A model generated the notes under the pieces. That model had not been told where the DNA came from. It did not search any database and saw only the letters and a program-made list of their open reading frames with translations. The position numbers and the translations under genes are program-made. 64,000 nucleotides of DNA from an uncultured Candidatus Sumerlaeota bacterium (lineage in GTDB: Bacteria; Sumerlaeota; Sumerlaeia; MVZB01; JAJFLK01): assembly GCA_964598765.1 (NCBI GenBank), contig CAZRCZ010000001.1, positions 342,327 through 406,326 on the forward strand. The letters are read 5' to 3'. Positions 9,259 through 57,571 of the stretch are shown here, piece after piece (position 1 is the first letter of the stretch; every line of letters begins with the position of its first letter).

Positions 9259-11223
9259 TTACGGCTTGGACGAAGTCGGTTTCTTCTCGGACGCTTCCGC
9301 AAGCCGATTAACAACCATCGAGACGGTAAGCAATCCATCCGGTAGCACGATTGGCTCGCCCGGGCGTCCAGCGGGAAAAACCACATAGAGCGGCACGCCG
9401 CTCCTGCCGAACTGATGCAGGACTCGGGTGATTTCCGGCGAGCGGTTTGTGTAATCCGCCTTGAGCGTAATTACATTGTATTTCGCAAGAGCGTCTTGAA
9501 TCGCCTGAGTGGCGAGAACGGCTTTTTCATTCACCTTGCATGTCAAGCACCAATCGGCGGTGAAATCCACGAAGACGGTTTTATTTTCCGCCGCCAGCTT
9601 TTCGACCAAATCCACGCTGAACGATTGCCATTGGATTTTGCCATCGGCGATTGAAACTGTTTGGCGCGCGTCAATTCCGGGTTTTTCCTTTACTCTCAGA
9701 AATCTTTCGGGAAAATAAAGATAGGACACAAGAATCAACGCCGATGCTGAAGCGGCGAAGGTGAGCCGCTTCTTATTTGTTGCTCGCAGATCAAATCCGA
9801 GACCGAGCAACCAGCAAGCCAATCCTACCACCGTCAAAAAAGCCAGCGTTTGAATGATACCCTCCGAACCGATTTGTCCTCCCACGACCGACAACAACCA
9901 CACCACAGTCGCCATCAAAAGAAATCCCATTATCTGTTTGAAGACGTCCATCCACGCGCCCGGTTTGGGCATGAATTTGAGCCAGCCCGGTTTGGCGGTC
10001 AGCAAAACGTAAGGCGAGGCTAGCCCGCCGGCAATGGCGAGAAAAAAAAGATAAATGACGAGCGGCGGTTGCGCGAAGGCAAATCCCAAGGCGGGAGCCA
10101 GTAGGGGAGCCGTGCAGGGCGTCGCTAAAGCCGTGGCTAGTACGCCGTTGAAAAACGCCCCAGCCGCCCCCTCACGTCTTTGCAATCCTTCCACCCCTTC
10201 GATGGCCGTCCCGGGCAGTTCGACGGTGAAGACTCCGAAGAGGCTCAACCCGAACGCGAAGACAATCGCGCACATGAGAATCACGAAGCGCGGTTCTTGG
10301 AATTGAAATCCCCACCCGATTTGCGTTCCCGCGCCTTGAACCGCAACGACCACCGACGCCAAGGCGGCGAAGGATGCGAAAACTCCCAAGGCAAAAACAA
10401 GACCGAGCCGGAAAACACGCTTCGGTTCTTCGCCCGATTGTCGGACAAAACTCAAAATTTTGATCGAAAGGACGGGCAAAACGCAGGGCATGATGTTCAG
10501 CAACAGCCCGCCCAAAAACGCGAAGACCAAGAAACCGATCGTTGATTTCTCCGCTTTCGATTCCTTTTTCTCCTTCAAAAAAGAAAATACCTGTCCCTGC
10601 TCCGTCGCCTTGATCCCTTGCTCTTTTGGCGGAGTCGCCGTCGTCGCGACAGGGGTGGAGATCGGAGTCTCGCGTGGAACAGTCTCCGCGTAGTGATCGA
10701 ACAAAGAGGAGAAAGCCGAAGCGGCCGCTTTGCCGGCGGAAAGCGAAAGTTCAATTTCCATTTCTCCCGGAATACATTGGCCGTCCAGCTTGCAGACGAG
10801 CCAGTTCGTCTTGGCGGAAAGCTTATATTTCTTGTCGGACTCCAAATTCGTCGTCGGCGTCACGGAGGCGAAAATCAAAACCTCACTCTCGTAGCCGATA
10901 TTGACGATCCCGGCGGTTTCGATTCTTTTCGGCTCCGGCCATTGCAAGGGTCCGGCGGTGAATCCCTCGGGGAGTTCCCAATGGATTTCGGTCGGCAGGC
11001 CGATTTCTCCCGGCGTGTGCCAATAGATGTGCCACTGTGGGTCTATCTTGAACAACGCGCCGAGCCGGAACGGTTTCCCCGGCTCGATGGCGTCGGTATC
11101 GGCGATCAGCGAAACTTGAACGTGTTCTTCCTTTGCCGAAACCGCCGACGCAAAGCAAAAAGCGGCCATAAAAATTAGCAACGACGTTCGGCCGGTCTGT
11201 GAGCCTTGTTGCATCGAGTTCAT
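9259..11223 (-). CDS. dsbD: Thiol:disulfide interchange protein DsbD
   Basis: Signal peptide, central cytochrome-c-biogenesis-type transmembrane region (NIMPCVLPVLSIK), C-terminal thioredoxin fold with WCLTC motif. Start taken at ATG 11223 (signal peptide MNSMQQ...). Confidence 0.85.
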   Translation of the reverse strand: MNSMQQGSQTGRTSLLIFMAAFCFASAVSAKEEHVQVSLIADTDAIEPGKPFRLGALFKIDPQWHIYWHTPGEIGLPTEIHWELPEGFTAGPLQWPEPKRIETAGIVNIGYESEVLIFASVTPTTNLESDKKYKLSAKTNWLVCKLDGQCIPGEMEIELSLSAGKAAASAFSSLFDHYAETVPRETPISTPVATTATPPKEQGIKATEQGQVFSFLKEKKESKAEKSTIGFLVFAFLGGLLLNIMPCVLPVLSIKILSFVRQSGEEPKRVFRLGLVFALGVFASFAALASVVVAVQGAGTQIGWGFQFQEPRFVILMCAIVFAFGLSLFGVFTVELPGTAIEGVEGLQRREGAAGAFFNGVLATALATPCTAPLLAPALGFAFAQPPLVIYLFFLAIAGGLASPYVLLTAKPGWLKFMPKPGAWMDVFKQIMGFLLMATVVWLLSVVGGQIGSEGIIQTLAFLTVVGLACWLLGLGFDLRATNKKRLTFAASASALILVSYLYFPERFLRVKEKPGIDARQTVSIADGKIQWQSFSVDLVEKLAAENKTVFVDFTADWCLTCKVNEKAVLATQAIQDALAKYNVITLKADYTNRSPEITRVLHQFGRSGVPLYVVFPAGRPGEPIVLPDGLLTVSMVVNRLAEASEKKPTSSKP

Positions 11224-14485: not shown

Positions 14486-14611
14486 CCCCCCAGCTTGGAA
14501 CGATCCCGCGCAAGGCTCAAATCTTTTTTTTGTCACGGATTTTGCGGATTAAACAGATTATGTTTCGAAAAGTCCAAGGCAATATCTGTGTAATCCGCGA
14601 AATCCGCGACT

Positions 14612-14658
14612 TGAAAGAAAAAGCGGGGAGACCGAAGCTTGGACTTCGATCTCCCCGC
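14612..14658 (-). terminator. Intrinsic terminator downstream of sigma-factor gene
   Basis: 15-bp stem gcggggagaccgaag / cttcgatctccccgc (1 mismatch) with 6-nt loop at 14623-14658, followed on the minus strand by a U-rich run (plus-strand gaaagaaaaa 14612-14622). Confidence 0.6.
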
Positions 14659-14694
14659 CGGTTGATGGCCGCGCGTCCTTTGCCGCGCAGACGC

Positions 14695-23583: not shown

Positions 23584-23615
23584 GTCTTATATCTCCCTAA
23601 ATTCTATGAATACTT

Positions 23616-23709
23616 AAACACAAAGACACAAAGAAGGCACAAAGAATGGTGAGGCCGTGTGTCTTCCTAATCCCTTGTATTCTTTGTGACTCCTTCGTGT
23701 CTTTGTGTA
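23616..23709. repeat. Imperfect palindrome of tandem CACAAAG heptamers (CACAAAG subfamily, copy 1)
   Basis: Arms aaacacaaagacacaaagaaggcacaaagaatg and cattctttgtgactccttcgtgtctttgtgt separated by ~30 nt; shares a 23-nt identical core with 57445-57571. Confidence 0.85.
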
Positions 23710-23715
23710 TAATCT

Positions 23716-25191
23716 TCAAGCGTCGTTTACAATTTTTTCCTGTTTCGAATCCCAACGGACCCGTCTGCCGCGCAGATAGGCTTGATTCGCCATGTGCGCG
23801 ATGACGGCTTCATCGAAGGCCATGTCAATGTTGCAATTCGTTTTCACGTTTCCGCTCCGGACGCACTCGACGAAATTGAGCGCGTGAAGCGCCGTGACGT
23901 TGATCTTCTTGCCGTTGACGATCTCGATGTAAATCGCCTTGCCGAACATCCAATCCAAAGAGCGACTGCTCTTGGCCTTGATCTCCTCCAGACTCTTCAA
24001 ATCCTCCGCGCTCCCGATGTCCACGAACCACTTTTTCTTTTCAAGGTTGTCCAAATAATCGGGACGGTCCGAGTCTTTGTCGAAGATCAACTGCATCCCG
24101 TGGGTCATGTCGAGCGTGGCGTCGTGGCCGAAGAGCGCCCGCTCGCGCGTCTGGCTGTTGGCGAGCGTTCCGGTGTAGGTGACCATGATCTCTTCTTTTT
24201 CATAGTTGAACGTGATTTGGAGAACGTCGGGCGTTTCGCGTCCGTCCTTGTGATAATAAATGCCGCCCGACGCGACCGCCGTGCTCGGGATGCCGAGACC
24301 GGTGATTTGCTGAATCGCGTCCATTTCGTGCGTGAGCAGATCGCCGCATTGCCCCGTGCCGTAGTCCCAGTATTTGCGGAAACGGAAAAAGCGGTCCAAG
24401 TTGAAATCGCGCTTGGGACCTTTGCCCGTGAAGCGCGCCCAATCAATGTTGTCCGGCCCGGCGCCGACGGGAATTTTGTAAATCCAAGCTCCGTTGGCGT
24501 TGTTGCGGTTGGTGTAGGTTTCGATGAGGGTGATTTTGCCGAGCGCGCCCTCGGGACCGATGGAGCCGATGGCTTTCTTGGCCTTGGCCATCGTCGTGCC
24601 GCTTCGGGTCTGGTGGCCGAGTTGGAAAACAACCCCCGCTTGTTTCACGGCGGCGCGATATTCAATGGCGGCCTCGATGGAGTTGGCGAAACTTTTCTCG
24701 GAATAAATGTGTTTTCCGGCCTGCGCGGCGGCGATCCCGACGAGCGAATGATTGTGGTCCGAAGTTCCGATGAAAATCGCGTCCACGTTTTTATCGGCGA
24801 GCAGATCCTCGAAATTGGGATAAACCTTGATGTCCGGCACGGCCCCTTTGGCCCATTCCTGATTTCCTTTGTAGCAATCGCTCATCGCATGGGCGCGGAC
24901 GTTCAGCGGGCGGGGGAGATTCGCGGTCGGGTCTTCCTTCGGCTCGTCCTTCGGAGAAGGATCCTTGGGATTGCTGAATCCGGTGTAGCGCATGTGTTGT
25001 TTGCCGCGCACGCCGACGCCGACGTATCCGAGATTGACTGTGTCGCTCGGTTGCATTTTTTTGATGAACGCCGGAGCCTTTGGTTTTTCCTCCGCGCTCA
25101 TGGCGGCTTGGCCGGCGGAAGCGGCGGTCAAGGCGACGGCGGCGGAAGTTTTCAGAAAATCGCGGCGTTGAAGCATTGCGTCTTCGGACAT
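23716..25191 (-). CDS. Gfo/Idh/MocA-family oxidoreductase, Tat-exported
   Basis: Tat signal MSEDAMLQRRDFLKTSAAVALTAA; Rossmann N-domain. Start at ATG 25191 with GGAGGAGG RBS upstream; ORF-track start 25218 is GTG. Confidence 0.8.
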   Translation of the reverse strand: MSEDAMLQRRDFLKTSAAVALTAASAGQAAMSAEEKPKAPAFIKKMQPSDTVNLGYVGVGVRGKQHMRYTGFSNPKDPSPKDEPKEDPTANLPRPLNVRAHAMSDCYKGNQEWAKGAVPDIKVYPNFEDLLADKNVDAIFIGTSDHNHSLVGIAAAQAGKHIYSEKSFANSIEAAIEYRAAVKQAGVVFQLGHQTRSGTTMAKAKKAIGSIGPEGALGKITLIETYTNRNNANGAWIYKIPVGAGPDNIDWARFTGKGPKRDFNLDRFFRFRKYWDYGTGQCGDLLTHEMDAIQQITGLGIPSTAVASGGIYYHKDGRETPDVLQITFNYEKEEIMVTYTGTLANSQTRERALFGHDATLDMTHGMQLIFDKDSDRPDYLDNLEKKKWFVDIGSAEDLKSLEEIKAKSSRSLDWMFGKAIYIEIVNGKKINVTALHALNFVECVRSGNVKTNCNIDMAFDEAVIAHMANQAYLRGRRVRWDSKQEKIVNDA

Positions 25192-25363
25192 GGAATCCTC
25201 CTCCAAGCTGATAGTCACCGAGCGGACCTTGGTCTCAATTTGATGTTACGGTTCGACGATGACGTTGGCAACGGGAAATTATCCAAGGGAAATTGAACGC
25301 GGATGAACACGCATTGCGCGGATCAAGAATCAATCCGCGCGGTCCGCGCGGAAGGATAATTCA

Positions 25364-31080: not shown

Positions 31081-31180
31081 TCTTCCCATCATTGCTCCTA
31101 CTCTTACTCATTCTCCTTCTCCTGAGAAAAGCATAAACCGCAAGGTGTTGAGAATGAGGAGGAGTAGGAGTATGAGAATG
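31081..31180 (+). repeat. Purine-rich imperfect inverted repeat in leader of M28 peptidase gene
   Basis: ctcctactcttactcattctcc ... gagaatgaggaggagtaggag(tatgagaatgag); the purine-rich arm ends 9 nt before the ATG at 31189. Confidence 0.7.
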
Positions 31181-31188
31181 AGAACGAT

Positions 31189-32901
31189 ATGGAACCAACC
31201 AACACCGACAAGCGATTTTCATTACGCGACCTTCTCGCTTTCGTGCCGATTCTCGTCTTGGCGCTCTGCGCGGCGTTCGCGTTAATGCGGATCACGCCCC
31301 CCAAACCGAAACCCGCCGACGCGCCCGCCTCGGAATTTTCCGCTGAGCGTGCGCTGATCCATCTGCACCAGATCGCCAAAGCGCCGCATCCCTCCGGCTC
31401 CGAGGAACACCGCCGCGTCCGGGAATACGTCATCGGCGAATTAAAAAAATTGGGTCTGGAGCCGGAAATCCAACAATCGGTTTCGGACGAGAAATCAGGC
31501 GGCCATTCCGCCCCCGGCATGACGTTCACCAACATCATGGCGCGATGGAAGGGAACGGACAATTCCCGCGCTCTCTTGATCGCCTGTCACTACGACAGCG
31601 TGGCGATGGGACCCGGCGCGAGCGACGACGGAGCGGGCGTCGTGGCGGTTCTGGAAACGATCCGCGCCTTAAAATCCGGCGCGCCGCCCAAGAACGATCT
31701 GATCTTTCTTTTCACCGACGGCGAGGAGGTCTGCCTCTGCGGAGCGCGGGCGTTCGCGGAGAATCATCCTTGGGCGAAGGACGTCGGATTGGTCGTGAAT
31801 TTCGAGGCGCGTGGGACCGCCGGACCTTCCATCATGTTCGAGACCAGCGCCGAGAACGGTTGGCTGATCTCCCAATACGCCCGCTCCGCCGTTCATCCCT
31901 CCGCCAGTTCGCTCAGCTACGAAGTCTATAAGCGAATGCCGAACGACACCGATCTGACGGTGTTCAAGAAACGGGGATTCGCGGGATTGAATTTCGCGTT
32001 CATCAAGAACGTCAAATTTTATCACACGGCCAACGACACGGTCGAAAATCTGGACAAGCGGAGCCTCCAGCACCACGGCGAGAACGCGCTGGCCATGGCG
32101 CGATGTTTCGGCAATCTCGATCTGCGGGAAATCAAAAAAACGAACGACGTCTATTTCGACGTCCTCGGCGCGTTTGTCATTCGATATTCTGAACATTGGG
32201 CGATTCCGTTGGCGATATTCGCGGTTCTGTTTTATCTGGTGATTACAATGACGGCGATAAAACTTGGCGAGTTTTCGTGGCGGCTGGGATTATTACGATT
32301 GGGTCTGTCGCTGGCCACATTTATTCTTTGGCCGCTCTTGCTCCATCTCCTCTCACTGGTGGGTCATATCAACTCCATTTCCAAGAAGGACCCATCTGGA
32401 TTTGCTTTCACGACCAATCCCTACGCGCTCTTGGGATTTGTTTTGGCGGCGCTTGCTCCCTTTTTCGGGTACTATTTGGCATGGAAGGGGGGTTCGGTCG
32501 TGGAGAAGACGATTGCCGGAGTATTCTGGTGGGTTATTCTGACCCTCCTGACGGTCTTTTTCCTTCCCGGAGCCAGCTATCTCTTCACTTGGCCGCTCAT
32601 CTTTGCCGCGCTCGGAATAGGATTTGTCCTCCAATCCCAGCGAATAGGAGGAAGTCCGATTGTGAGATCGTTTGCTTTGCTTCCTTTCAGTATTCCCGCC
32701 ATCATCCTTTGGACCCCGACCATCTATCTTCTGTTTTTGGCAATGACGCTCAAACTAACAGGCGTGATCGTCTTATTCGTGATGTTGAATCTTGAACTTT
32801 TTGCCCCTCACTCCGCGCCTTTATCGCCGCGACTACGTTCCGTTGCAATAATCGCAACCGTGGTGATCGGCATCGGCCTTGTAACCTATATTCTCCGGTG
32901 A
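31189..32901 (+). CDS. M28-family metallopeptidase with C-terminal polytopic membrane domain
   Basis: Peptidase M28 motifs (HYDSV, SDDGAGV, DGEE, metal ligands) in N-terminal half; C-terminal half with multiple TM helices. Confidence 0.75.
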   Translation: MEPTNTDKRFSLRDLLAFVPILVLALCAAFALMRITPPKPKPADAPASEFSAERALIHLHQIAKAPHPSGSEEHRRVREYVIGELKKLGLEPEIQQSVSDEKSGGHSAPGMTFTNIMARWKGTDNSRALLIACHYDSVAMGPGASDDGAGVVAVLETIRALKSGAPPKNDLIFLFTDGEEVCLCGARAFAENHPWAKDVGLVVNFEARGTAGPSIMFETSAENGWLISQYARSAVHPSASSLSYEVYKRMPNDTDLTVFKKRGFAGLNFAFIKNVKFYHTANDTVENLDKRSLQHHGENALAMARCFGNLDLREIKKTNDVYFDVLGAFVIRYSEHWAIPLAIFAVLFYLVITMTAIKLGEFSWRLGLLRLGLSLATFILWPLLLHLLSLVGHINSISKKDPSGFAFTTNPYALLGFVLAALAPFFGYYLAWKGGSVVEKTIAGVFWWVILTLLTVFFLPGASYLFTWPLIFAALGIGFVLQSQRIGGSPIVRSFALLPFSIPAIILWTPTIYLLFLAMTLKLTGVIVLFVMLNLELFAPHSAPLSPRLRSVAIIATVVIGIGLVTYILR

Positions 32902-33461: not shown

Positions 33462-34625
33462 ATGAAACTCAACCCTTACCCTGCCCTCTCTCTCGGAAAG
33501 GGAGAGGGTTTGCATGGGCAAAAATCCACCCGAGCCGCGACCGTGAGGGAGCGCCCAGCCCGCGAAATTCTTGTTTTCGGGCGCTCCCTCACGGTCGCGG
33601 CTCTGATGTTGCAGTTCTTCTTTTTCTTTGCTCGCGCCGCTGAAATCGCGCTCCATCCCGGGCATCACGAAATCACGTTCAAGAACGGCAAGACCGCCCA
33701 AGGGGAAATTCTGGCCGTCGAAGGGGAAAAATTTCGCTTCCAGCCCTACGAGGGGTCCGCGTTTGTCCTTCCGTTGGATCGAATCCAAACCGCCCGTGCG
33801 CTTTCGCCGGCGGAAGGCGTGCTTTTTCAATCGCGCCAGATGGCGGAGAAGGGAAAGCTCGATGAAGCCGTGCGATTATTGACGCGGAGCGCCGGGATGG
33901 AGGGAGGAGCCGCGCTGGAAGGGGAGCTGATGAGGCGGCTGAACGAATTGAATCGCCTGATAAAAGCGTCGCAGAAAAAAGAATTGGCGGAATTCGAGAA
34001 AAAATTCGAGGAATTACTGGACCGCAATCAACTTCACGACGCGCTCGATCTGGCGAGGCAAACGCTCAAGGATCATCCCGACGATCCCGACCTGCTCGGC
34101 GACGCCGCGCTGGCGGAATTTCGGATTCATCGCGGGCAAGGGGGGATCGCGAGCGAGTTTCGCTCGTTCCATTTGGATCGTTTGAAAAAAGCCGATCCGC
34201 AATCGCCAATCCTGCTCGGGATTCAAGCGGAAATGGGGGTCTCGGAGAAGCTTCAGGCCAAATGGGAATCCGACCGTAAGGCGTTCTTGGCGACCGCCTT
34301 GGACGATGCGGCGCGCTTTTACGAGAATTTCCAACTTCAAGAAGCCAAGGACATCCTCGACAAGGCGCTGGCGCTCGATCCGCCCGATGATCTGCTTGGT
34401 CCGCTGAAGGAACTGGCGGCCAAAGTGGACGCCGAAATTGCCGGCGGGTCCAAGGATCAGGCGCTACGGGAACGCGAACGCCTCCGCGCGCTCGAAGAAA
34501 AAACAAAGATGGAAGGGGAGTCGTCGGGCAAATCGCTGAGTGAATCCGAATCCAAGAAACTGGATAAAAAGCGCGCCCGCAGAATTCAGCAACGCGCGAT
34601 TGACCAAAGCCGTGGACCGAGATGA
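33462..34625 (+). CDS. Hypothetical exported coiled-coil / TPR-like protein
   Basis: 387-aa ORF, hydrophobic N-terminal segment, helical repeat-like C-terminus. True start may be ATG 33606 because 33532-33603 forms a perfect hairpin. Confidence 0.4.
   Translation: MKLNPYPALSLGKGEGLHGQKSTRAATVRERPAREILVFGRSLTVAALMLQFFFFFARAAEIALHPGHHEITFKNGKTAQGEILAVEGEKFRFQPYEGSAFVLPLDRIQTARALSPAEGVLFQSRQMAEKGKLDEAVRLLTRSAGMEGGAALEGELMRRLNELNRLIKASQKKELAEFEKKFEELLDRNQLHDALDLARQTLKDHPDDPDLLGDAALAEFRIHRGQGGIASEFRSFHLDRLKKADPQSPILLGIQAEMGVSEKLQAKWESDRKAFLATALDDAARFYENFQLQEAKDILDKALALDPPDDLLGPLKELAAKVDAEIAGGSKDQALRERERLRALEEKTKMEGESSGKSLSESESKKLDKKRARRIQQRAIDQSRGPR
33532..33603. repeat. Perfect 25-bp inverted repeat (hairpin)
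   Basis: gagccgcgaccgtgagggagcgccc ... gggcgctccctcacggtcgcggctc with 22-nt loop; located 78 nt after the PaaI stop. Confidence 0.85.
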
Positions 34626-34644: not shown

Positions 34645-34962
34645 TCATCGGCGACGTTTCGATTTGGTCCGTTCGATCCAATATCCCGGCTTGCGCCGAT
34701 TATGCATCACGGCAAGAACATGGATCACGCCACCTGCGATCCGATACACGATGCTGTAAGGAAACTTGTTCAGCACGATTCGCCGCGAGCCGGCTTCAAA
34801 GATCGGCCATCGCTCCGGAGCTTCGAGGATCAACTTGATTTTGGATTCGATCTCGATCTGGAAATTTTGCGCGGCGGAAACGCTACGCGCGCGATACCAC
34901 TCGGCCCCGTAAAAAAGTTCCCGTTCGGCCCCCATGTGGAATTCGAGTTTATTTTGCGTCAA
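34645..34962 (-). CDS. Type II toxin, RelE/ParE family
   Basis: LEFHMGAERELFYGAEWY...FPYSIVYRIAGGVIHVLAVMHNRRKPGYW matches ParE/RelE-type toxins. TTG start with AGGA RBS; overlaps antitoxin stop by 14 nt. Confidence 0.7.
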   Translation of the reverse strand: MTQNKLEFHMGAERELFYGAEWYRARSVSAAQNFQIEIESKIKLILEAPERWPIFEAGSRRIVLNKFPYSIVYRIAGGVIHVLAVMHNRRKPGYWIERTKSKRRR

Positions 34963-38582: not shown

Positions 38583-38624
38583 CCACAACCGAGCAGTGAC
38601 CGCACGGTCGCGGCTCGGTTGTGG
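38583..38624 (-). terminator. Hairpin immediately downstream of hemA stop
   Basis: Perfect 12-bp stem ccacaaccgagc / gctcggttgtgg with 18-nt loop, directly after the hemA stop codon. Confidence 0.5.
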
Positions 38625-46882: not shown

Positions 46883-46957
46883 TTCACCACAGAGACACAG
46901 AGAGGGTGAAAAAATGCGGACTCGCACTTTTCTACTTCTCTGTGTCTGCGTGGTGAA
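46883..46957. repeat. Imperfect palindrome of tandem CACAGAG heptamers (between convergent genes)
   Basis: Arms ttcaccacagagacacagagagg and cttctctgtgtctgcgtggtgaa; loop ~29 nt; sits between the mqn-like stop and the GT4 stop. Confidence 0.85.
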
Positions 46958-46958
46958 C

Positions 46959-48140
46959 TCATTCCGGCCAAGGGATGTTCTTATCGGCGAATAATCGCCG
47001 ATAGACTTTTTTTTGCTTCTCGATCACCATTTCCTCGCTGAAAAATTCCTCGGCGCGGCGTCTTCCGGCTTCGCCCACTTTTTTTCTCAGATCGGGGGAG
47101 GCGAGAAGCTCGGCCAAGGCGTCGGCCAGCGCGTCGGCGTCGCGCGGCGGGATGAGCCGTCCGGTCCGGCTGTCCACGACCTCCTCCCGGCAACCGCGAA
47201 TGTCGGACGCGATCACCGGCAATCCGCTGGCCATCGCCTCCAGAATCGAGCGCGGCATACCCTCGCGCCAAGAGGGAAGAACGAACAGGTCGCTTGCGGC
47301 CAGCAGACGCGGAACGTCACGGCGCAATCCCGCGAAAATGACGCAATCGGCCAGATGGAATTCGTTGACCTTGGCGTGGATTTCTTCAGCCGAACGGTCA
47401 TGTTCGCTCGGCAATGCCTCGCCTATGACGACGGCGCGCGCGTTGGGGAAGCGTTCTCGAATTTTTGCCCACGCCTTCAAAAATTCCAGATACCCCTTCT
47501 CCCGCACGAGCCGCCCCATCATCGTCACGACGGGACCTTCGCCGGGTTTGATTCCCAATCCGGCGCGAACCTCGGCGCGCTCGTCCACGCGCAAAAGATC
47601 GGGACGGAATTTTTGGAGGTCAACCCCGTTGCCGATGGTCATGGCGCGGTCGAGCGGCGCGATCTTGCAGGCGACGGCGGTTTGCAGGTCTTCCTCGCTC
47701 TGCGAAAAAAGAAAGTCGGCTTTGCGTTGCGCCCAACGCTCCAGCGCGATGTAAACCGCGCGGACGAGCGGACTCATCCGGTCATGAAAATAAAATCCGT
47801 GCGCAGTGTAAAGGACGAGCGGGACGCCGGAGCGTCGCGCCGCCGGACGCCCCAGCAACGCCGCGACCGGCGTGTGAACGTGAACGACCGTGTAATCCGC
47901 CGTCTTGAACAACTTGCGAAGCCCGCGATAACCTTGGATTAGTTTCAGCGGATTTTTGCTCCGGGAGATCGGCACGGCGCGGACGGGGAATCCCTCGGCC
48001 TGAATCGCCGGAACAAAAACCCCGGGCGCGCAGGCCAACTCGACTTCAAATCCCCATTCCCTCTGCGCGCGCATCAGGGGCAGGAGAAAATGATAAGCCG
48101 TGAAATCCACGGCGCAGAGCTGGAGGACGCGGGGTTTCAT
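46959..48140 (-). CDS. Glycosyltransferase family 4 (GT-B fold)
   Basis: 393-aa; GT4 C-terminal signature (GLPVIASDIRGCREEVVDSRTGRLIPP). Confidence 0.8.
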   Translation of the reverse strand: MKPRVLQLCAVDFTAYHFLLPLMRAQREWGFEVELACAPGVFVPAIQAEGFPVRAVPISRSKNPLKLIQGYRGLRKLFKTADYTVVHVHTPVAALLGRPAARRSGVPLVLYTAHGFYFHDRMSPLVRAVYIALERWAQRKADFLFSQSEEDLQTAVACKIAPLDRAMTIGNGVDLQKFRPDLLRVDERAEVRAGLGIKPGEGPVVTMMGRLVREKGYLEFLKAWAKIRERFPNARAVVIGEALPSEHDRSAEEIHAKVNEFHLADCVIFAGLRRDVPRLLAASDLFVLPSWREGMPRSILEAMASGLPVIASDIRGCREEVVDSRTGRLIPPRDADALADALAELLASPDLRKKVGEAGRRRAEEFFSEEMVIEKQKKVYRRLFADKNIPWPE

Positions 48141-48187: not shown

Positions 48188-48281
48188 AACGCAGAGGCGC
48201 GGAGGACGCAGAGATTGAATGAAGGTCTTGTCTCAATTTGAAATACTCTGCGTTTCTCCGCGTTCTCTGCGCCTCTGCGTT
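48188..48281. repeat. Imperfect palindrome of tandem CGCAGAG units
   Basis: Arms aacgcagaggcgcggaggacgcagag and ctctgcgtttctccgcgttctctgcgcctctgcgtt; between MaoC-like stop and GT4 start. Confidence 0.85.
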
Positions 48282-49155: not shown

Positions 49156-52100
49156 TCACTTCAGCGTCGAGATGAACTCCACCAAATCGCGCAATTCGGA
49201 TTTGGCGAGATTTTCAGAAATGTCTTCGGGCATCGAGGAGAGATTGTGCTGGCGGGAGACGATTTGATCCTTGGGGAGCGTCATCTTCGTCACTCGCGGG
49301 CCTTTAGTGGCTTCCGACTCCCACTTTTCGTTCTTATCCTTCTCCTTCTCATCCTCCTTTTCGTCCTTTTTTGCTTCCGTCCCCTTCGGCGCATCCTCCT
49401 CCTCGACAAATTCCTCCCCTTCTTCTTGGACTGGAATCTCCAGTAGAATCTGGTTTCCTTCTTCTTCCAGAACCCGTCCGGCGTATTCCTTGCCGTCTTT
49501 CATCGTCAGCGTGACGTTCTCAAATCCCTCGGCGATTTGCGCGTTGGGATGAAGAATGGATTCGAGGATGTATTCGCGCCCCTTGCGTGTGCCGACGCTC
49601 GGTAGCTCCGGCCCGACTTCGCCTCCCACTTTGCTTTTAACCGTATGGCATTTCTGGCAGGTGACTTCAGTTTTCTCGAAGAAAATTTTCTCTCCCCGCT
49701 CGGCGTTGCCGCCGAAGAGCGACTCGCGGAATCCGCCGAGCGGATCATCCGTGGAAATCGCGGATTGATACCGCGCCAACTTCATTTTGATCTCATCGTT
49801 CGGATGCTTCTGGGCCGCTTCGAGCAGATCGAGTTGAATTTCGGCGGGGACTTTTTTCGCCGCCAGCGAATCGAGCCACGTCGAGAGCAGTTGATCGAAT
49901 TGCGCTCCCTCCAAATCGGCGAGCGTCGCCAGCGCCCCTTGCTTTTCGAGGATGCTTCCCCCGTTGAGCGCCGTCGCCAAGACGCTCGCCGCTCCGGCGG
50001 GATCGAGTTTGGCGAGTTGAGCGTTCCCCTCGTTGCGTAGCGCGTCGGCGGCGTCGGCGCGGGCGAGGTTCACCGCCTTGGCGAGGTTGGGGTCCTCGAA
50101 TTCGCCGAGCGCCCTCAGCGCCTCAACTCGCGCCTCGGTTGGCTTTTTCGCGTCGGAGAGCAACGCAAAGAGGGGCGCGCCCGCCTCAGCGACTTGATAC
50201 TGTCCGGCGAGTTGCGCGCAGGCCTGCAAAATTTTGTTCGGCGCGGAGCGGAGAAGTTCGGGCAGGATCGGCCTCAAGGCGCGAGCCGCGGTTTCGGGAT
50301 CGCGCTTGGGCAGAGGACGCCAGACGCCGATCACGCGGTCGCGCCCCGACGGAGACGCCCAATCTTTTAACTCGCCGAGCGCTTCGAGCCTCACGACCTC
50401 GGGCGGCTCCGAGCGCGACGCGAATTCGGCGATGGCTTTGGCGTTCTCCGCGCCGCCCAATCGGAAATTCGCGTTGAGAATCCTCAACATCACCGGCTTG
50501 CCGACCACGTCGGCGTCGGCCATTTTCAGAATGTTTTCGCTCTGGCCGATCATCCCCGCCAGTTCGGGTAGGGCGTCGGCAATCGGAACGTCGTTGATCG
50601 CATGAGCCGCCTCGCTGACGAGCGCCGGATCGCGGTCCTTGAGGAATCGCGCAATTTCCGGTTTTTGCATTCGACGCAAGGCGAGCAAAATTCCCATCCG
50701 CACCGCCGACGATTCGTCATCGGCGTGTTTCAGCAACGCCTCCGCGTCGCCAATCCCGACCAATCCCATCACTCCGGCATGGCGCAGATACGGATCGGCG
50801 TCGTTATTTTCGCGAAGCATTTCCGCCAGCGCGGAGATGTATCTGGTTTTAATTTCTTCCGATGGAGGCATCGCCGGAACGCCGGGATTGACGATCTTGC
50901 CAAGACTCATCGCCGTAAAAAAACGGACGCGAAGACTTGCATCTTTGAGTAGATCCAATAATTCCGTCAAATGTGACTCATTTGAATTTAATATTACCGA
51001 ATGTATGTCGCTCAAGACCTTGATTGCTTGGGCACGAATTTCGGCGTTTTCGTCTTTCAAGCACTCAACCAAGACGGCCTCTCCGCGATTGCGCGGATCA
51101 GACAAAAATTCTCCAAGTCCTTTGCCCAACAGTTCGCCTGCCGCTTTTTCCCCTTCTGGTCCTAACTTAAGATCGTTTCCGGAAATTAAAGTAGAGACGA
51201 CAAGAGAAAAAATGAATTGGAACTCTTTCTCTTTATCTTGGGGAGATTGGGCTACGGCTTCGGATTTCGGCTCGACCTTAGGTCCGAGTTTGCTCAGAAC
51301 TTCTCCGATTCCCCAAATTGCGTGGAGCCGTGCCCATGGGCTTCGAGAGCATTTCTCAGCCAATTGTAAAAGCGCCCGTGCTTGAGCATCCGGGTATTCT
51401 CCCGATGTCCAAGAATTTTTGAACTCCTCGGAGTAGGTTTGCGGACTTATGAATGCAATCGTGCCCAGCGTTCCAAATAGCATAAAATCCGAATCACGCC
51501 CAGTCTGGAGCCTTCTCAAATCCCTCCGTGCCAACTCATACTGCGCCTCGAACCGCACTCTTTGATCCTGGTGCGCGAGCAGTTCCCCCAACTCATAATC
51601 GCTGTAGCGATCCAGATTCCCCGCGAGGATTTCCTTTGCCTCCTTGACGAGCGGATCGTTTTTCACCGCGGGATCGAAGGCGTGATAGAGGCGTCCCTTG
51701 TGCGGCTGATCCCAACCTTCGGTCCAATCGGTCCAATAAATGCCCCCCTCAGCGCCGAAATCCACGTCGGTCACGAGGGACCCCTTGAGGAAATCCTCGC
51801 GGTCGGTCATCTCGAACGAGGCCCCCTTGGGTTGGACCTTGAAGGTGTGAATCAGGCTTATCCCCGCTCCGCCGCGAAAATCGCACAGAAAAAAATGATC
51901 CTTGTATCGTTCCGGCATTCCCGTGCCGGGATAAAACGCGAACCCCGCCGGTCCGGCGGCGACGTGCGCGACGGGAGGCACGATATACGCGGCCTGTCCC
52001 TTCCACGGGAGGTGCCAGATTTTTTCGCCGTTCCACGGACCGCGCTGGACCGGCTTTTCGATCCACTGGTAGCCGATCCGCCAGCCGCTGTCGCCCCCCT

Positions 52101-53061
52101 CGACGCAATAGACGAGCCGCGCCTTGTCGCCGGCGTCGGAGTTGTTGTCGCCGGTGAAGAGATTGCCGTAGTCGTCAAAGACGAGTTCCTGCGGGTTGCG
52201 GAGTCCGGTGCAGAACGGCTCCAATTGCGAGCCGTCGGGATTGCAACGGAAGACCGCGCCGGTGTCGGGAAGGTCAATGACGCGCCCTTCGGTTTCGATA
52301 TGCGCGCCGCGGTCGCCGATGCTGAAATAAAGTTTGCCGTCGGGGCCTTTGCGCAGACCGTGGAGATCGTGGCCGAGAAAATTAAAGTGGACGCCGTAGC
52401 CCGTGCTGAGCGATTTGCGTTCGTCGGCCTTGCCATCGCCGTCGGTGTCGCGCAGTTTCCAGAGATCCGGGATGCAGGTGTAGTAAATGTCCCCTTGATC
52501 GGCGAGTAATCCCGCGCCGACGCCGTCCTCCGCGTGGTTGAATCCGTCGGCATAAACGACGGCGCGGTCGGCTTTGCCGTCGCCGTCGGTGTCTTCGAGC
52601 AGACGGATGCGCTCGTGCTGTTTGTCGTAGTCCGCGAACGACTCGCCGAGGTTTTTCTTCATCGCGGCGAGCCGATCCGCGACGGTCCGGCTCGCCAGAT
52701 CGTCGTCGAGCCAGAGGCGGTGCGTCCGCATGTCAAGCACGCCGTCATAGAGGCGGAACGTCTCGCCGACGTAAAACCGCCCCTTGTTGTCCAAGCAGAA
52801 ACAGACCGGATTGGCGAGCATCGGCTCGGCGGCGAAAAGCTCGATCTTGAATCCGTCGGCGATTTTGAATTTCTTGATCGCCTTTTCCCCTTCGTCGGAG
52901 GCGGGGTTGATTTGGGGATGATAGGCGGGGTCTTCGGCAAAGGCGAAGGTAAAAAGGGAAAATAAAATCACCACAGAGGCGCAGAGGCACAGAGTAGGGG
53001 CGACCCGTTGAGTCGCCCGCTTTCTTCTCTGTGTCTCTGTGACTCTGTGGTTTTTCTTCAT
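49156..53061 (-). CDS. Large exported protein with beta-propeller 'membrane-bound dehydrogenase'-like domain, HEAT repeats and C-terminal cytochrome-c (CxxCH) domain
   Basis: 1301 aa; N-terminal signal-like segment, HEAT-repeat middle, CQKCH heme-binding motif near C-terminus, acidic Lys/Glu-rich tail. Confidence 0.75.
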   Translation of the reverse strand: MKKNHRVTETQRRKRATQRVAPTLCLCASVVILFSLFTFAFAEDPAYHPQINPASDEGEKAIKKFKIADGFKIELFAAEPMLANPVCFCLDNKGRFYVGETFRLYDGVLDMRTHRLWLDDDLASRTVADRLAAMKKNLGESFADYDKQHERIRLLEDTDGDGKADRAVVYADGFNHAEDGVGAGLLADQGDIYYTCIPDLWKLRDTDGDGKADERKSLSTGYGVHFNFLGHDLHGLRKGPDGKLYFSIGDRGAHIETEGRVIDLPDTGAVFRCNPDGSQLEPFCTGLRNPQELVFDDYGNLFTGDNNSDAGDKARLVYCVEGGDSGWRIGYQWIEKPVQRGPWNGEKIWHLPWKGQAAYIVPPVAHVAAGPAGFAFYPGTGMPERYKDHFFLCDFRGGAGISLIHTFKVQPKGASFEMTDREDFLKGSLVTDVDFGAEGGIYWTDWTEGWDQPHKGRLYHAFDPAVKNDPLVKEAKEILAGNLDRYSDYELGELLAHQDQRVRFEAQYELARRDLRRLQTGRDSDFMLFGTLGTIAFISPQTYSEEFKNSWTSGEYPDAQARALLQLAEKCSRSPWARLHAIWGIGEVLSKLGPKVEPKSEAVAQSPQDKEKEFQFIFSLVVSTLISGNDLKLGPEGEKAAGELLGKGLGEFLSDPRNRGEAVLVECLKDENAEIRAQAIKVLSDIHSVILNSNESHLTELLDLLKDASLRVRFFTAMSLGKIVNPGVPAMPPSEEIKTRYISALAEMLRENNDADPYLRHAGVMGLVGIGDAEALLKHADDESSAVRMGILLALRRMQKPEIARFLKDRDPALVSEAAHAINDVPIADALPELAGMIGQSENILKMADADVVGKPVMLRILNANFRLGGAENAKAIAEFASRSEPPEVVRLEALGELKDWASPSGRDRVIGVWRPLPKRDPETAARALRPILPELLRSAPNKILQACAQLAGQYQVAEAGAPLFALLSDAKKPTEARVEALRALGEFEDPNLAKAVNLARADAADALRNEGNAQLAKLDPAGAASVLATALNGGSILEKQGALATLADLEGAQFDQLLSTWLDSLAAKKVPAEIQLDLLEAAQKHPNDEIKMKLARYQSAISTDDPLGGFRESLFGGNAERGEKIFFEKTEVTCQKCHTVKSKVGGEVGPELPSVGTRKGREYILESILHPNAQIAEGFENVTLTMKDGKEYAGRVLEEEGNQILLEIPVQEEGEEFVEEEDAPKGTEAKKDEKEDEKEKDKNEKWESEATKGPRVTKMTLPKDQIVSRQHNLSSMPEDISENLAKSELRDLVEFISTLK
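52968..53052. repeat. Imperfect palindrome of tandem CACAGAG units (overlaps 5' end of the large dehydrogenase ORF)
   Basis: Arms atcaccacagaggcgcagaggcacagag and ttctctgtgtctctgtgactctgtggtt with an inner gggcgac-ccgttga-gtcgccc hairpin. Confidence 0.85.
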
Positions 53062-53064
53062 TGT

Positions 53065-54015
53065 TCAATCCTTCAAATACTTCGACAAATCGGGCGAGAT
53101 CAATTCCTTGATCTCCGGCGTCTCCAGATTTTCCTTCGTCACCAATTCCAATCGCGTGCGGATCGTCTTCTCGACTTTTTGTCCGCGCAACTGCGCGACC
53201 ATCGCCCGGACCCCTTGCTCGCCGATGTTGACGGGGTCCTGAACGACCAGACCCTGAATCTCATCCTTGCGCAGGGCTTCGATCAGGCGGTCGGTTGCGT
53301 CGAAGCCGACGAACCTGATTTTGCCCGCGCGACCGGCTCCGCGCAAAGCCAAAAGCATTCCATAGGTCACCGGCGCGTTGGGGCAAAAGACGCCGTCAAT
53401 TTGCGGAAAGCGATTGAGCAAATCCTCTCCCTTCTGTTGCGCCCCTTCGACCGTCGCTCCGGCAAATTGATTGGAGGAGATGATTTCGATTTTCGGGAAT
53501 TGTTTTTTGATCCCCGCGAGAAATCCTTCCTCCCGATTCGTGTTGCTCGCCGAGCCTTCGACGTAACGGAGAAGGACGACCTTCCCCTGACCGTTCAACA
53601 ATTTGCCGAGCCGCTCGGCCGCCAATTCGCCGCCGCGAGAATTGTCGGTCGCGACAAAACTGACATGCTCGTCCCCCTGCAAATCGGAATCAATCACGAC
53701 GGTCGGGATTCCGGCCTTTTTCGCGTCGCGCACGGGATGGACCAGCGCCTTATCGTCGAGCGGAGCCAAGACAATGCCGTTCACTTTTCGGCTGATAAAA
53801 TCCTCGACGACCTGAATCTGTTGCTCGCGGTCGTCTTCGCGCTGGGGTCCCTTCCAAATGATCTTCACGTTCAGATCGCGCGCGGCCTTTTCCGCTCCGG
53901 CATGGACTGATTTCCAAAATTCGTGCGTCGTGCCTTTGGGAATGACGGCGATGGTTTGAGCGAGCGCGAAGCGGCCCATGAGCGACAGGCTTAACAGGCA
54001 TATGTTGATCTTCAT
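53065..54015 (-). CDS. Periplasmic sugar-binding protein (ABC transporter substrate-binding, RbsB/LacI-type fold)
   Basis: Signal peptide MKINICLLSLSLMGRFALA; type I periplasmic binding fold motifs (KVNGIVLAPLD, IPTVVIDSD). Start at ATG 54015. Confidence 0.75.
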   Translation of the reverse strand: MKINICLLSLSLMGRFALAQTIAVIPKGTTHEFWKSVHAGAEKAARDLNVKIIWKGPQREDDREQQIQVVEDFISRKVNGIVLAPLDDKALVHPVRDAKKAGIPTVVIDSDLQGDEHVSFVATDNSRGGELAAERLGKLLNGQGKVVLLRYVEGSASNTNREEGFLAGIKKQFPKIEIISSNQFAGATVEGAQQKGEDLLNRFPQIDGVFCPNAPVTYGMLLALRGAGRAGKIRFVGFDATDRLIEALRKDEIQGLVVQDPVNIGEQGVRAMVAQLRGQKVEKTIRTRLELVTKENLETPEIKELISPDLSKYLKD

Positions 54016-54031
54016 GTTTATTCCCTTCTTA

Positions 54032-54113
54032 TTCACCACAGAGACGCAGAGGTACAGAGAAATACTTGGACGCTTTTCACTTCTTCTCTGTGTCTCCTTG
54101 CCTCTGTGGTGAA
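54032..54113. repeat. Imperfect palindrome of tandem CACAGAG units
   Basis: Arms ttcaccacagagacgcagaggtacagagaa and ttctctgtgtctccttgcctctgtggtgaa; immediately upstream of the sugar-binding-protein start. Confidence 0.85.
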
Positions 54114-54766
54114 TCATCTTTTACTTTTCGATACCTCCCCACAAACACCACCGGTTCCGCGGTCGCCTTATCACCGTAAATACCGCTCCCCTCAACGCAA
54201 TGCGCATCCCCCTCCACCCACTCGCGGAACGACTCAAGAACGCTCGGCGCGGAGCGGGACCAGAACAAATAATTCCCTTCGATCTTCCCAGTGCGAAAAA
54301 TCACCTCGCCGCCGTTTTTGCGGATGATCTTGCACCGGATCGTTTTCAGTTCGAAGTCCGCGCTGTAGAGCGCGCTCTCGCGTACCGTCTTGCCGGTCTT
54401 GGGATCGGTGATCTCGAAATGCCCCTCCTGCTGAAATTCCTTGTCGGCGAGGACGTGGCGATAATCCTGTCGGACTTTGACCTTGGAGACCGGCTCGCCG
54501 GTGAATTTGTAGGTGGCGAGCTCTCCCTCCCAAACTCCATCCCATGCCTTGAAGGGAGAAGCGACCGATTGCGCCGTCGCGGGAACCGAGAGGGCTTTGA
54601 TGAGCGCCAAGACGCCAAACCCCGAGATCCACAGAAGGAGAACTATGACCAACAGACGCGAAACCCAGAGGGGATAAGCGCGTTCCGATTTGTCTTCAGA
54701 AGATTCCAAGGATTTTTTTCCGTTTCTTGTCAGAGGCGGGCTTCTTTGCGTTGCCGTTTTCCGCAT
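54077..54766 (-). CDS. Hypothetical membrane-anchored protein
   Basis: 229-aa ORF with one N-terminal TM helix; overlaps upstream peptidase gene end and the 54032-54113 repeat; start uncertain. Confidence 0.4.
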   Translation of the reverse strand: MRKTATQRSPPLTRNGKKSLESSEDKSERAYPLWVSRLLVIVLLLWISGFGVLALIKALSVPATAQSVASPFKAWDGVWEGELATYKFTGEPVSKVKVRQDYRHVLADKEFQQEGHFEITDPKTGKTVRESALYSADFELKTIRCKIIRKNGGEVIFRTGKIEGNYLFWSRSAPSVLESFREWVEGDAHCVEGSGIYGDKATAEPVVFVGRYRKVKDDSPQRQGDTEKK

Positions 54767-57371: not shown

Positions 57372-57444
57372 CCCTCTCTCACGCTTTAATTGCTCTGGAA
57401 TCGTGCAGAAAATCTCTGAAATCCGCAAGGGAGTTGGCAGAGGG

Positions 57445-57571
57445 ATTAAACACAAAGACACAAAGAAGGCGCAAAGGTCACAAAGAATGAAGGGATTCCG
57501 CGAATGAAAATCAGAGGCGGATGTTATTCCTTCGTGTCCTTCGTGCCTTCTTTGTGTCTTTGTGTTTAATC
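57445..57571. repeat. Imperfect palindrome of tandem CACAAAG heptamers (CACAAAG subfamily, copy 2)
   Basis: Arms gattaaacacaaagacacaaagaaggcgcaaaggtcacaaagaatgaagg and ccttcgtgtccttcgtgccttctttgtgtctttgtgtttaatc. Confidence 0.85.

Follow-up and report, generated by a model that had tools for sequence, protein, structure and literature searches.

We analysed a 64,000-nucleotide stretch of an uncultured Candidatus Sumerlaeota genome (contig CAZRCZ010000001.1, positions 342,327 to 406,326; referred to here as the window), and in particular the hairpin at 46883-46957 and five others like it, whose arms are built of tandem heptamers of the form CRCRRAG. We read these six loci, together with a seventh hairpin at 14532-14610, as miniature members, without an open reading frame (ORF), of a widespread family of palindrome-bounded cassettes that have CRCRRAG heptamers in their arms and a gene of the GxxExxY (PDDEXK_3) family between them; we put the probability of this reading at about 60%. 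Long and short forms share their termini and have a fixed polarity and a niche behind stop codons. They are present or absent at orthologous sites, delimit blocks of homology that run from arm to arm, and agree in heptamer type within single contigs.

Heptamer arms of the window hairpins and of GxxExxY cassettes

The borders of the hairpins were refined by reading each locus and by an inverted-repeat scan of the window. An earlier note on this DNA, made from the sequence alone, had listed six such palindromes, and all six were recovered, each reading as a hairpin and each detected by the scan. They are imperfect inverted repeats with arms of 27-42 nt that are 81-90% complementary, stems of 25-45 bp and loops of 15-44 nt, and their RNA folding energies range from -38 to -76 kcal/mol on either strand. 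Every arm contains two to four tandem CRCRRAG units at a spacing of 8-11 nt. The shared heptamer-armed architecture that the note described is real: the double heptamer CRCRRAGNCRCRRAG (period 8) occurs 12 times in the window where 0.09 are expected by chance, and all 12 occurrences are inside the six loci. In all six the 5' arm is the purine-rich one and the 3' arm the pyrimidine-rich one, the distance from the stop codon of the upstream gene is 3-36 nt, and the loop sequences are unrelated among the copies. Numbering the hairpins E1 to E6 along the window, the proposed grouping into three subfamilies is roughly right, although to call their members near-identical was too strong. E1 and E6 have CACAAAG units and the foot TTAAAC, and their 5' arms match at 25/30 positions; E2 (the hairpin at 46883-46957), E4 and E5 have CACAGAG units and the foot TTCACC or ATCACC, with 23-24/30 matching; E3, with CGCAGAG/CGCGGAG units, is a singleton.

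The connection to a coding element was found while listing arms that lacked a partner. In a locus from Verrucomicrobia (L101), CACAGAG arms 430 nt apart enclose a PDDEXK_3 gene (Pfam E = 3.9e-43). Among protein homologues retrieved with the core domain alone (n=120), 82 have an arm-encoded N-terminus like MNHxDTExQR (ATGAAC followed by CACxxAGACACAGAG), and 88 have an arm-encoded C-terminus like LCASVSLW (CTCTGTGCCTCTGTGTCTCTGTGG). The GxxExxY family comprises 22,052 clusters at 50% identity, and many diverse representatives have arm-derived termini of both the CACAGAG and the CGCAGAG types. The top-scoring cluster representatives (P0241-P0259) are 260-295 aa long and contain two PDDEXK_3 stretches, that is, tandem or fused GxxExxY copies. 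A DNA sample of 80 metagenomic GxxExxY loci provided 77 usable genes, 54 of which are flanked by an inverted repeat, with at least two CRCRRAN units in 40 of the 54. Strict arm pairs 379-597 nt apart are present at 38 GxxExxY loci, as compared to one pair in 0.95 Mb of earlier loci that served as a control.

The canonical cassette reads TTCACC-(CRCRRAG N)3-leader-ORF-(N CTYYGYG)3-GGTGAA and is ∼440-470 bp long, with a leader of 15-25 nt and a PD-(D/E)XK GxxExxY gene of ∼125 aa; the short form keeps the foot and arms with a loop of only 15-45 nt. The TTCACC foot of the cassettes is also that of E2, E4 and E5 (ATCACC in E4), and feet and units of the window hairpins recur in cassettes L181, L231, L203, L163 and L219. 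The unit type of the seventh hairpin (X1; CRCGGAT/ACAGAT units) is likewise found in a cassette, L221, which has CRCAGAT arms. Short hairpins and cassettes of one contig have a unit variant in common, CGCAGAG in L232 and CACGAAG in both L162 and L159. BLAST homology between otherwise unrelated contigs is bounded by arms at both ends, and some cassettes are kept at syntenic sites with 70-81% identity.

The cassettes are oriented with their surroundings. The ORF is on the same strand as its upstream neighbour in 56 of 60 cases, as its downstream neighbour in 51 of 57, and as both in 39 of 43, and none is antisense to both. The median gap between the preceding gene and the cassette ORF is 69 nt, arm and leader included. 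The ORF-bearing form lacks a promoter and points in the same direction as the genes around it, so that its expression is probably by read-through. A hydrogenase/complex-I-like operon of Opitutaceae TAV5 contains one cassette and two short hairpins. D77 and E87 are invariant in an alignment of GxxExxY proteins and K89 is almost so, and these proteins retain the D...E-x-K catalytic residues and a nuclease fold. A PDB sequence search with GxxExxY detected no solved relative, and in the searchable literature PDDEXK_3 is described only as 'unknown', with multiple transfers (PMC3424549). No link between heptamer hairpins and GxxExxY/PDDEXK_3 genes was found in the searchable literature, and a search there for CACAGAGACACAGAG and its variants returned no paper with these sequences.

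Distribution, position and gain of the elements

In a pattern search of one genome per GTDB species, at least 120 loci were obtained, with the foot and arm TTCACC-(CRCRRAG-N)n ... GGTGAA present in at least 15 bacterial phyla. Carriers among the matches listed include Acidobacteriota, Gemmatimonadota, Planctomycetota, Verrucomicrobiota, Chloroflexota, Myxococcota (Sorangium So0157-2), Beta-, Alpha- and Gammaproteobacteria, Calditrichia, Bacteroidota, Ignavibacteria, Chlamydiota, Actinomycetota and Firmicutes. Viral contigs contributed 26 further loci with CRCRRAG hairpins, and the plasmid collection a single unannotated Bacteroides match. The loops are unrelated across phyla as well, and the outermost stem bases are lineage-specific and covary between the arms (ttcac/gtgaa, ttaac/gttaa, tgaac/gttca, gctca/tgagc). 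Polarity is fixed, with the purine arm 5' in 190 pairs, and the six reversed cases are only side-by-side neighbouring elements. This spread, the polarity, the GxxExxY link and hairpin X1 were all overlooked in the earlier reading.

Gene contexts were assigned to 151 elements, of which 81 lie between co-directional genes, 34 between convergent and 13 between divergent genes, with eight intragenic and 15 at contig edges. The first heptamer is 4-26 nt past the upstream stop codon in ∼110 of 149 flanks, with no single fixed offset. The suggestion that the hairpins are associated with downstream genes for exported proteins did not hold up, as the common factor is the nearness to an upstream stop codon. 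A regulatory site tied to such genes is similarly not supported, given that position follows the upstream stop codon in the 149 flanks from many phyla. No conserved mini-ORF was found in the loops; Gemmatimonadota loops often start with ATGAAG, but the frame is not kept and the orientation to neighbouring genes is inconsistent.

Several variants were encountered among the sampled loci. Solo 5' arms (gctcaCACAGAGACACAGAGGCACAGAG) without a partner are situated 0-10 nt upstream of start codons, always in the sense direction, in at least ten cases, including the Gemmatimonadota loci L042, L057, L088, L095, L098 and L104 as well as L101. The solo arm puts GAGG ∼7 nt ahead of the ATG and so seems to be a leader bearing a Shine-Dalgarno sequence. 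In a set of GC-rich IMG/VR contigs (L127, L128, L133-L135, L141, L144 and L149) the loop contains an inner GC-rich mini-hairpin with an apex of the GCGAAGC/GCGCAGC/GCGTAGC type, and some of these contigs have three to four elements. Whole elements are also duplicated in tandem together with their flanks, in two copies of ∼103 nt at L092 (1977-2198) and three copies of 394 nt at L113 (5016-5900).

Comparison of orthologous sites shows that the elements are discrete gains and not ancient features. For an empty-site comparison, the one identical contig comes from the same organism, and the relatives next in line have 73-80% amino-acid identity. Sumerlaeota relatives with 73-79% protein identity have no hairpin ahead of the Peripla_BP_4 gene, and the small gene upstream overlaps that gene by 4 nt (ATGA/GTGA); in the window, this gene-overlap junction is precisely where E5 is located. 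Three relatives have none of these hairpins within 10-20 kb, and another has a variant with GATGYAGAG units. Pelomonas caseinilytica and Roseateles oligotrophus have flanking genes with ∼84% identity and differ in the element by a clean indel of ∼60 nt. A test for target-site duplication gave a weak 2-nt excess, with 26 observed versus 10 expected by shuffling, or an estimated ∼16 when the definition of the foot is allowed for.

Proposed mechanism and alternative explanations

We propose that the conserved heptamers are recognition sites of the GxxExxY nuclease, which would explain heptamer conservation across phyla, and that the nuclease mobilises both the long and the short forms. Both forms are gained as discrete units and land a few nucleotides past stop codons, within operons or at their ends. 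By analogy with rRNA intervening sequences (IVSs), the transcribed 25-45-bp stem could be an RNase III substrate or a 3'-end barrier, and either would limit the harm to the host operon. The role in RNA stability or processing that had been suggested for the hairpins is plausible only by this same analogy with RNase III-processed rRNA IVSs (PMC4990558).

We tentatively extend this, at somewhat below even odds, to the proposal that the hairpins and GxxExxY genes form an unrecognised, cross-phylum class of promoter-less mobile cassettes. In these the ∼125-aa nuclease would recognise inverted repeats of tandem heptamers, whether in RNA or in DNA of hairpin or cruciform shape, and would spread itself and its miniatures behind stop codons, with the rRNA IVSs as a sister branch. 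If true, this would give a function to PDDEXK_3 and explain the conservation of the heptamers from Firmicutes to Planctomycetes. The findings themselves suggest a selfish cassette family that lives within operons and depends on read-through transcription, connect hairpin elements embedded in mRNA with the long-unexplained rRNA IVSs, and offer a candidate reason for a non-coding heptamer being conserved across phyla. With GxxExxY/PDDEXK_3, a protein family that is abundant but uncharacterised is now associated with one specific nucleic-acid motif, and the function of the protein becomes directly testable. There are also consequences for annotation, because hairpins of this type are common in environmental bacteria (seven in 64 kb here), create spurious small ORFs, and cause false N- and C-terminal extensions of the HRDTETQR/LCASVSLW type.

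A number of observations weigh against the reading of the window hairpins as miniature cassettes. A six-frame motif scan found no PDDEXK_3 gene in the window, and the window copies lack one of the family's characters, a PDDEXK_3 ORF between the arms, their loops being only 15-44 nt long; with no ORF between the arms, they are filed as ORF-less derivatives and not as full members. The unrelated loops of the short copies in one genome are not predicted by simple whole-element copy-and-paste, and neither a target-site duplication of 3 nt or longer nor a defined cleavage site was found. Approximately 30-50% of GxxExxY loci are without recognisable arms. At L153 of Opitutaceae TAV5 (9853-10635) and at L202 (89-652), the GxxExxY ORF is located between two complete short hairpins and not inside one; it has its own decayed arms, and the two hairpins are similar and directly oriented. 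Such a layout might have arisen by recombination or by a large duplication of the target hairpin. In place of miniaturisation, the family may also have formed by ORF capture, with GxxExxY genes as cargo lodging in hairpin loops that were already there. In addition, loci selected by pattern are a biased sample, and the gene contexts derive from a simple home-made codon-likelihood gene caller, checked against Pfam-supported genes of the window. To our knowledge, no GxxExxY protein has a known biochemical activity.

The leading alternative takes the hairpins as primary and possibly beneficial to the host, acting in the manner of repetitive extragenic palindromic (REP) sequences as bidirectional 3'-end or intercistronic RNA barriers or as RNase III sites, with the GxxExxY genes as secondary passengers in the loops. 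The elements are indeed directly past stop codons, with an excess between convergent genes and a deficit between divergent ones. Their stems are long enough for RNase III, which cuts IVS stems of the same design; the GxxExxY ORF is sometimes between two complete hairpins, and some cassettes are retained at orthologous sites (70-80% identity). A structural role alone, however, leaves the heptamer conservation and strict polarity unexplained, and relatives have the same junctions without the elements. There is moreover no G.U versus A.C asymmetry of the sense strand: in the 81 co-directional contexts the sense strand gives the more stable fold 41 times and the less stable one 38 times (Wilcoxon p = 0.8), with 143 versus 123 G.U pairs, and thus no sign of selection on one RNA strand. 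No U-tract is present, as the hairpins in these contexts are followed by no T-run and the downstream T fraction is 0.29. We consider this alternative unlikely. The same T fraction bears on the possibility that the hairpins are ordinary GC-rich Rho-independent terminators that resemble each other by chance, which is scarcely credible in spite of their location downstream of stop codons, as the heptamer pattern is more than 100-fold over chance. Intrinsic terminators have a short GC-rich stem, a 3-8-nt loop and a U-tract, whereas the stems here are 25-45 bp and the loops 15-44 nt. A terminator scan of the window (25 sites, 25.7 expected) called none of the elements, and there is a canonical terminator beside E2. 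The earlier view of a dispersed repeat family and not ordinary terminators thus stands, supported by the lack of a U-tract and of strand asymmetry and by a sequence that is constant across phyla.

It is also conceivable, albeit improbable, that the hairpins are local inverted simple-sequence repeats, produced by slippage and template switching at pre-existing hairpins and forming, without a mobilising protein of their own, a loose class with the arrays of Xanthomonas (GGGAATC) and Nostoc (GGGGAYT). Such an origin fits the 19 of 73 tandem-armed hairpins in the sampled loci that have other 6-8-nt units, the variable unit number and the homogenisation of units within single elements. The inner GC-rich hairpin of some loops could then be an original terminator, and the Xanthomonas arrays occupy the same genomic niche, often as inverted pairs (PMC4692102). 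It does not account for an identical foot and heptamer across many phyla, for clean unit indels and arm-to-arm homology blocks, or for the pairing with one protein family. As the scan behind the 19 hairpins with other units was unbiased, tandem arms can be regarded as a generic architecture, of which CRCRRAG is the variant that goes with GxxExxY. Less probable again is an origin as REP/REPIN-type elements, with a RAYT (TnpA_REP) or a different IS200/IS605-like HUH transposase mobilising them. The hairpins are likewise extragenic palindromes near stop codons, apparently inserted without target-site duplication, and REP superfamilies are also cross-phylum (PMC3733652). The elements described here have no GTAG/CGTC tag and are 75-128 nt in size, the arm is a tandem array and not itself a palindrome, so that the hairpin is not a REP doublet, and the element with the same termini encodes a PD-(D/E)XK protein and not a Y1 HUH protein. 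The REP- or MITE-like character proposed earlier is accordingly half right: a likeness to MITEs (miniature inverted-repeat transposable elements) is the nearest option, as the hairpins are discrete gains with termini common to a longer coding cassette, and classical REPs can be set aside.

Other candidate identities were considered and rejected. Classical REPs and bacterial interspersed mosaic elements (BIMEs) carry the GTAG/CGTC tag at one end of a palindromic unit of 20-40 nt (PMC3733652), and this tag is missing here; the feet are TTCAC, TTAAC, TGAAC or GCTCA, and the arms are not self-complementary. Inspection by eye showed no RYYYAAC/GTTRRRY cores of integron attC sites, and parS, DnaA boxes, CsrA, Hfq and TRAP sites and CRISPRs were dropped on the same basis. 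A Tn5/Nextera adapter artefact was discarded, since the elements are present in finished isolate genomes, among them those of Sorangium So0157-2 and Opitutaceae TAV5. G-quadruplex heptamer repeats have G3-4 tracts in at least four units, whereas G-runs are absent from the CRCRRAG units. A 23S rRNA IVS proper does not apply to elements that lie between protein-coding genes and not in helix 25 or 45. No match to Rfam at the gathering threshold and no rRNA was found in the window, and permissive E-values gave sub-threshold eukaryotic miRNA-precursor models only. No transposase-like family was found among the proteins scanned.

The closest parallel that we have found is the helix-45 IVS in the 23S rRNA of Coxiella burnetii, a 428-nt 'selfish' element with an S23p ORF in its loop that is excised by RNase III; it contains two to three copies of the heptamer GACAGAT in tandem, a number that differs from strain to strain, and the RNase III cut is made where the first repeat begins (PMC4990558). 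Like the cassette, it is ∼430 nt long, with a long stem of tandem heptamers and a small ORF of unknown function in the loop. Like this family, IVSs occur in ORF-less or decaying versions and have a sporadic distribution that looks horizontally transferred. The GACAGAT heptamer is close to the ACAGAT/CRCAGAT units of this family, and the units of X1 in particular resemble it. The two differ in location, IVSs being in rRNA helices 25/45 and not past mRNA stop codons, and in the ORF, which encodes a four-helix-bundle S23p protein in the IVS and a PD-(D/E)XK protein in the cassette, the window copies being ORF-less. RNase III cleavage is a feature of the IVS, and would apply to the window elements by analogy only.

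Resemblances to other repeats are more partial. The Xanthomonas GGGAATC and Nostoc GGGGAYT arrays (Rehm et al. 2015) are 89-93% intergenic, lie much nearer to the end of the upstream ORF than to the next start, and have been interpreted as G-quadruplex formers (PMC4692102). In common with CRCRRAG they are tandem heptamers of two to four or more units with many convergent inverted pairs, no strand preference and few cases between divergent genes, and they are not conserved at the same genes in sister species. Their units are G-rich and lineage-restricted with no coding form reported, whereas CRCRRAG units are without G-runs and cross-phylum. MITEs are similarly short, non-coding and present or absent at orthologous sites, and their terminal inverted repeats are identical to the ones that a longer coding element has in those genomes. 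Unlike in MITEs, we see no convincing target-site duplication, the terminal repeats are arrays of a 7-nt unit, the loops differ among copies, and the coding partner is a 125-aa PD-(D/E)XK protein and not a known transposase. REP, BIME and REPIN sequences with their RAYTs share with this family the extragenic palindromes by stop codons, the apparent absence of target-site duplication and the cross-phylum superfamilies (PMC3733652; PMC3116915), and their mobilisation is attributed to a small hairpin-recognising nuclease that acts in trans. They are set apart by the GTAG/CGTC tag, which defines the REP superfamilies (PMC3733652), by palindromic units in place of tandem arrays, and by an HUH-Y1 in place of a PD-(D/E)XK protein. 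The TAACTGA intergenic repeats of Beggiatoaceae, Cyanobacteria and Bacteroidetes (PMC4679880) are heptamer arrays of more than one phylum too, for which no transfer mechanism is known, and are found upstream of start codons, as are the solo CRCRRAG arms of Gemmatimonadota (0-10 nt upstream). Unlike the CRCRRAG hairpins, they are direct repeats only, with another unit and no hairpin.

Individual hairpins and other repeats in the window

E1 (23614-23712) has the foot TTAAAC, three CACAAAG units per arm and a 31-nt loop, and lies 3 nt past the stop (23716, minus strand) of a GFO/IDH/MocA gene with a twin-arginine translocation (TAT) signal and 30 nt ahead of the ApbE start (23583). E2 (46883-46957), with the foot TTCACC/GGTGAA, two CACAGAG units in the 5' arm, a degenerate 3' arm and a 15-nt loop, occupies the gap between a CofH/MqnC-like gene (stop 46876) and a convergent GT4 gene (stop 46959). 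A terminator-like hairpin followed by T8 is found outside the element, just beyond it (46981-47014, plus strand), which suggests that E2 lies between a stop codon and the native terminator. E3 (48188-48281) has the foot TTAACG, three to four CGCAGAG/CGCGGAG units per arm and a 40-nt loop; it is 36 nt past the stop of a 274-aa gene and 47 nt ahead of a GT4 start (minus strand). E4 (52968-53052; foot ATCACC/GGT, three CACAGAG/CGCAGAG units per arm) contains a GC-rich hairpin inside its loop (52998-53018) and is 13 nt past the stop of a Peripla_BP_4 gene (53065, minus strand). In E5 (54031-54114; foot TTCACC/GGTGAA, units CACAGAG-CGCAGAG-TACAGAG), the upstream ORF (54077..54766, minus strand) runs through one arm and stops in the loop, and the Peripla_BP_4 ATG is at 54014. 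E6 (57444-57571), the longest of the set, has the foot TTAAAC, four CACAAAG/CGCAAAG/CACGAAG units per arm and a 44-nt loop, and is located 13 nt past the NAD synthase stop codon (57585, minus strand) and upstream of an M1 peptidase gene.

X1 (14532-14610) adjoins a terminator-like GC-rich hairpin, GCGGGGAGA...TCTCCCCGC with a T-run (14622-14660, minus strand), that is directly past the stop of a sigma-70 gene, showing that the host genome does use canonical terminators. The window also encodes a giant DUF7133-HEAT-cytochrome c protein (49156-53061) and the TAT-signal GFO/IDH/MocA oxidoreductase (23716-25218), both presumably typical of the gene content of Sumerlaeota and bacteria like those of the Planctomycetes-Verrucomicrobia-Chlamydiae group. 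The long-ORF starts of these two genes extend into E4 and E6, and the true starts are therefore downstream of the hairpins. A gene for a ParE-family toxin is present at 34645-34962 (minus strand; Pfam E = 2.3e-8).

Two other types of repeat are present in the window. The hairpin at 31095-31187 is also tandem-armed, with CTCNTN/GAGNAN hexamers (CTCCTACTCTTACTCATTCTCCTTCTCC ... GAGAATGAGGAGGAGTAGGAGTATGAGAATGAGAA), and lies just upstream of an ORF starting at 31189; it may belong to another cassette family. The near-perfect palindromes at 33527-33608 and 38583-38624, the latter between rpsL and its upstream gene, have a common core (GAGCCGCGACCG...CGGTCGCGGCTC) and folding energies of -63 and -39 kcal/mol, respectively, and look like a second dispersed palindrome family without tandem units.

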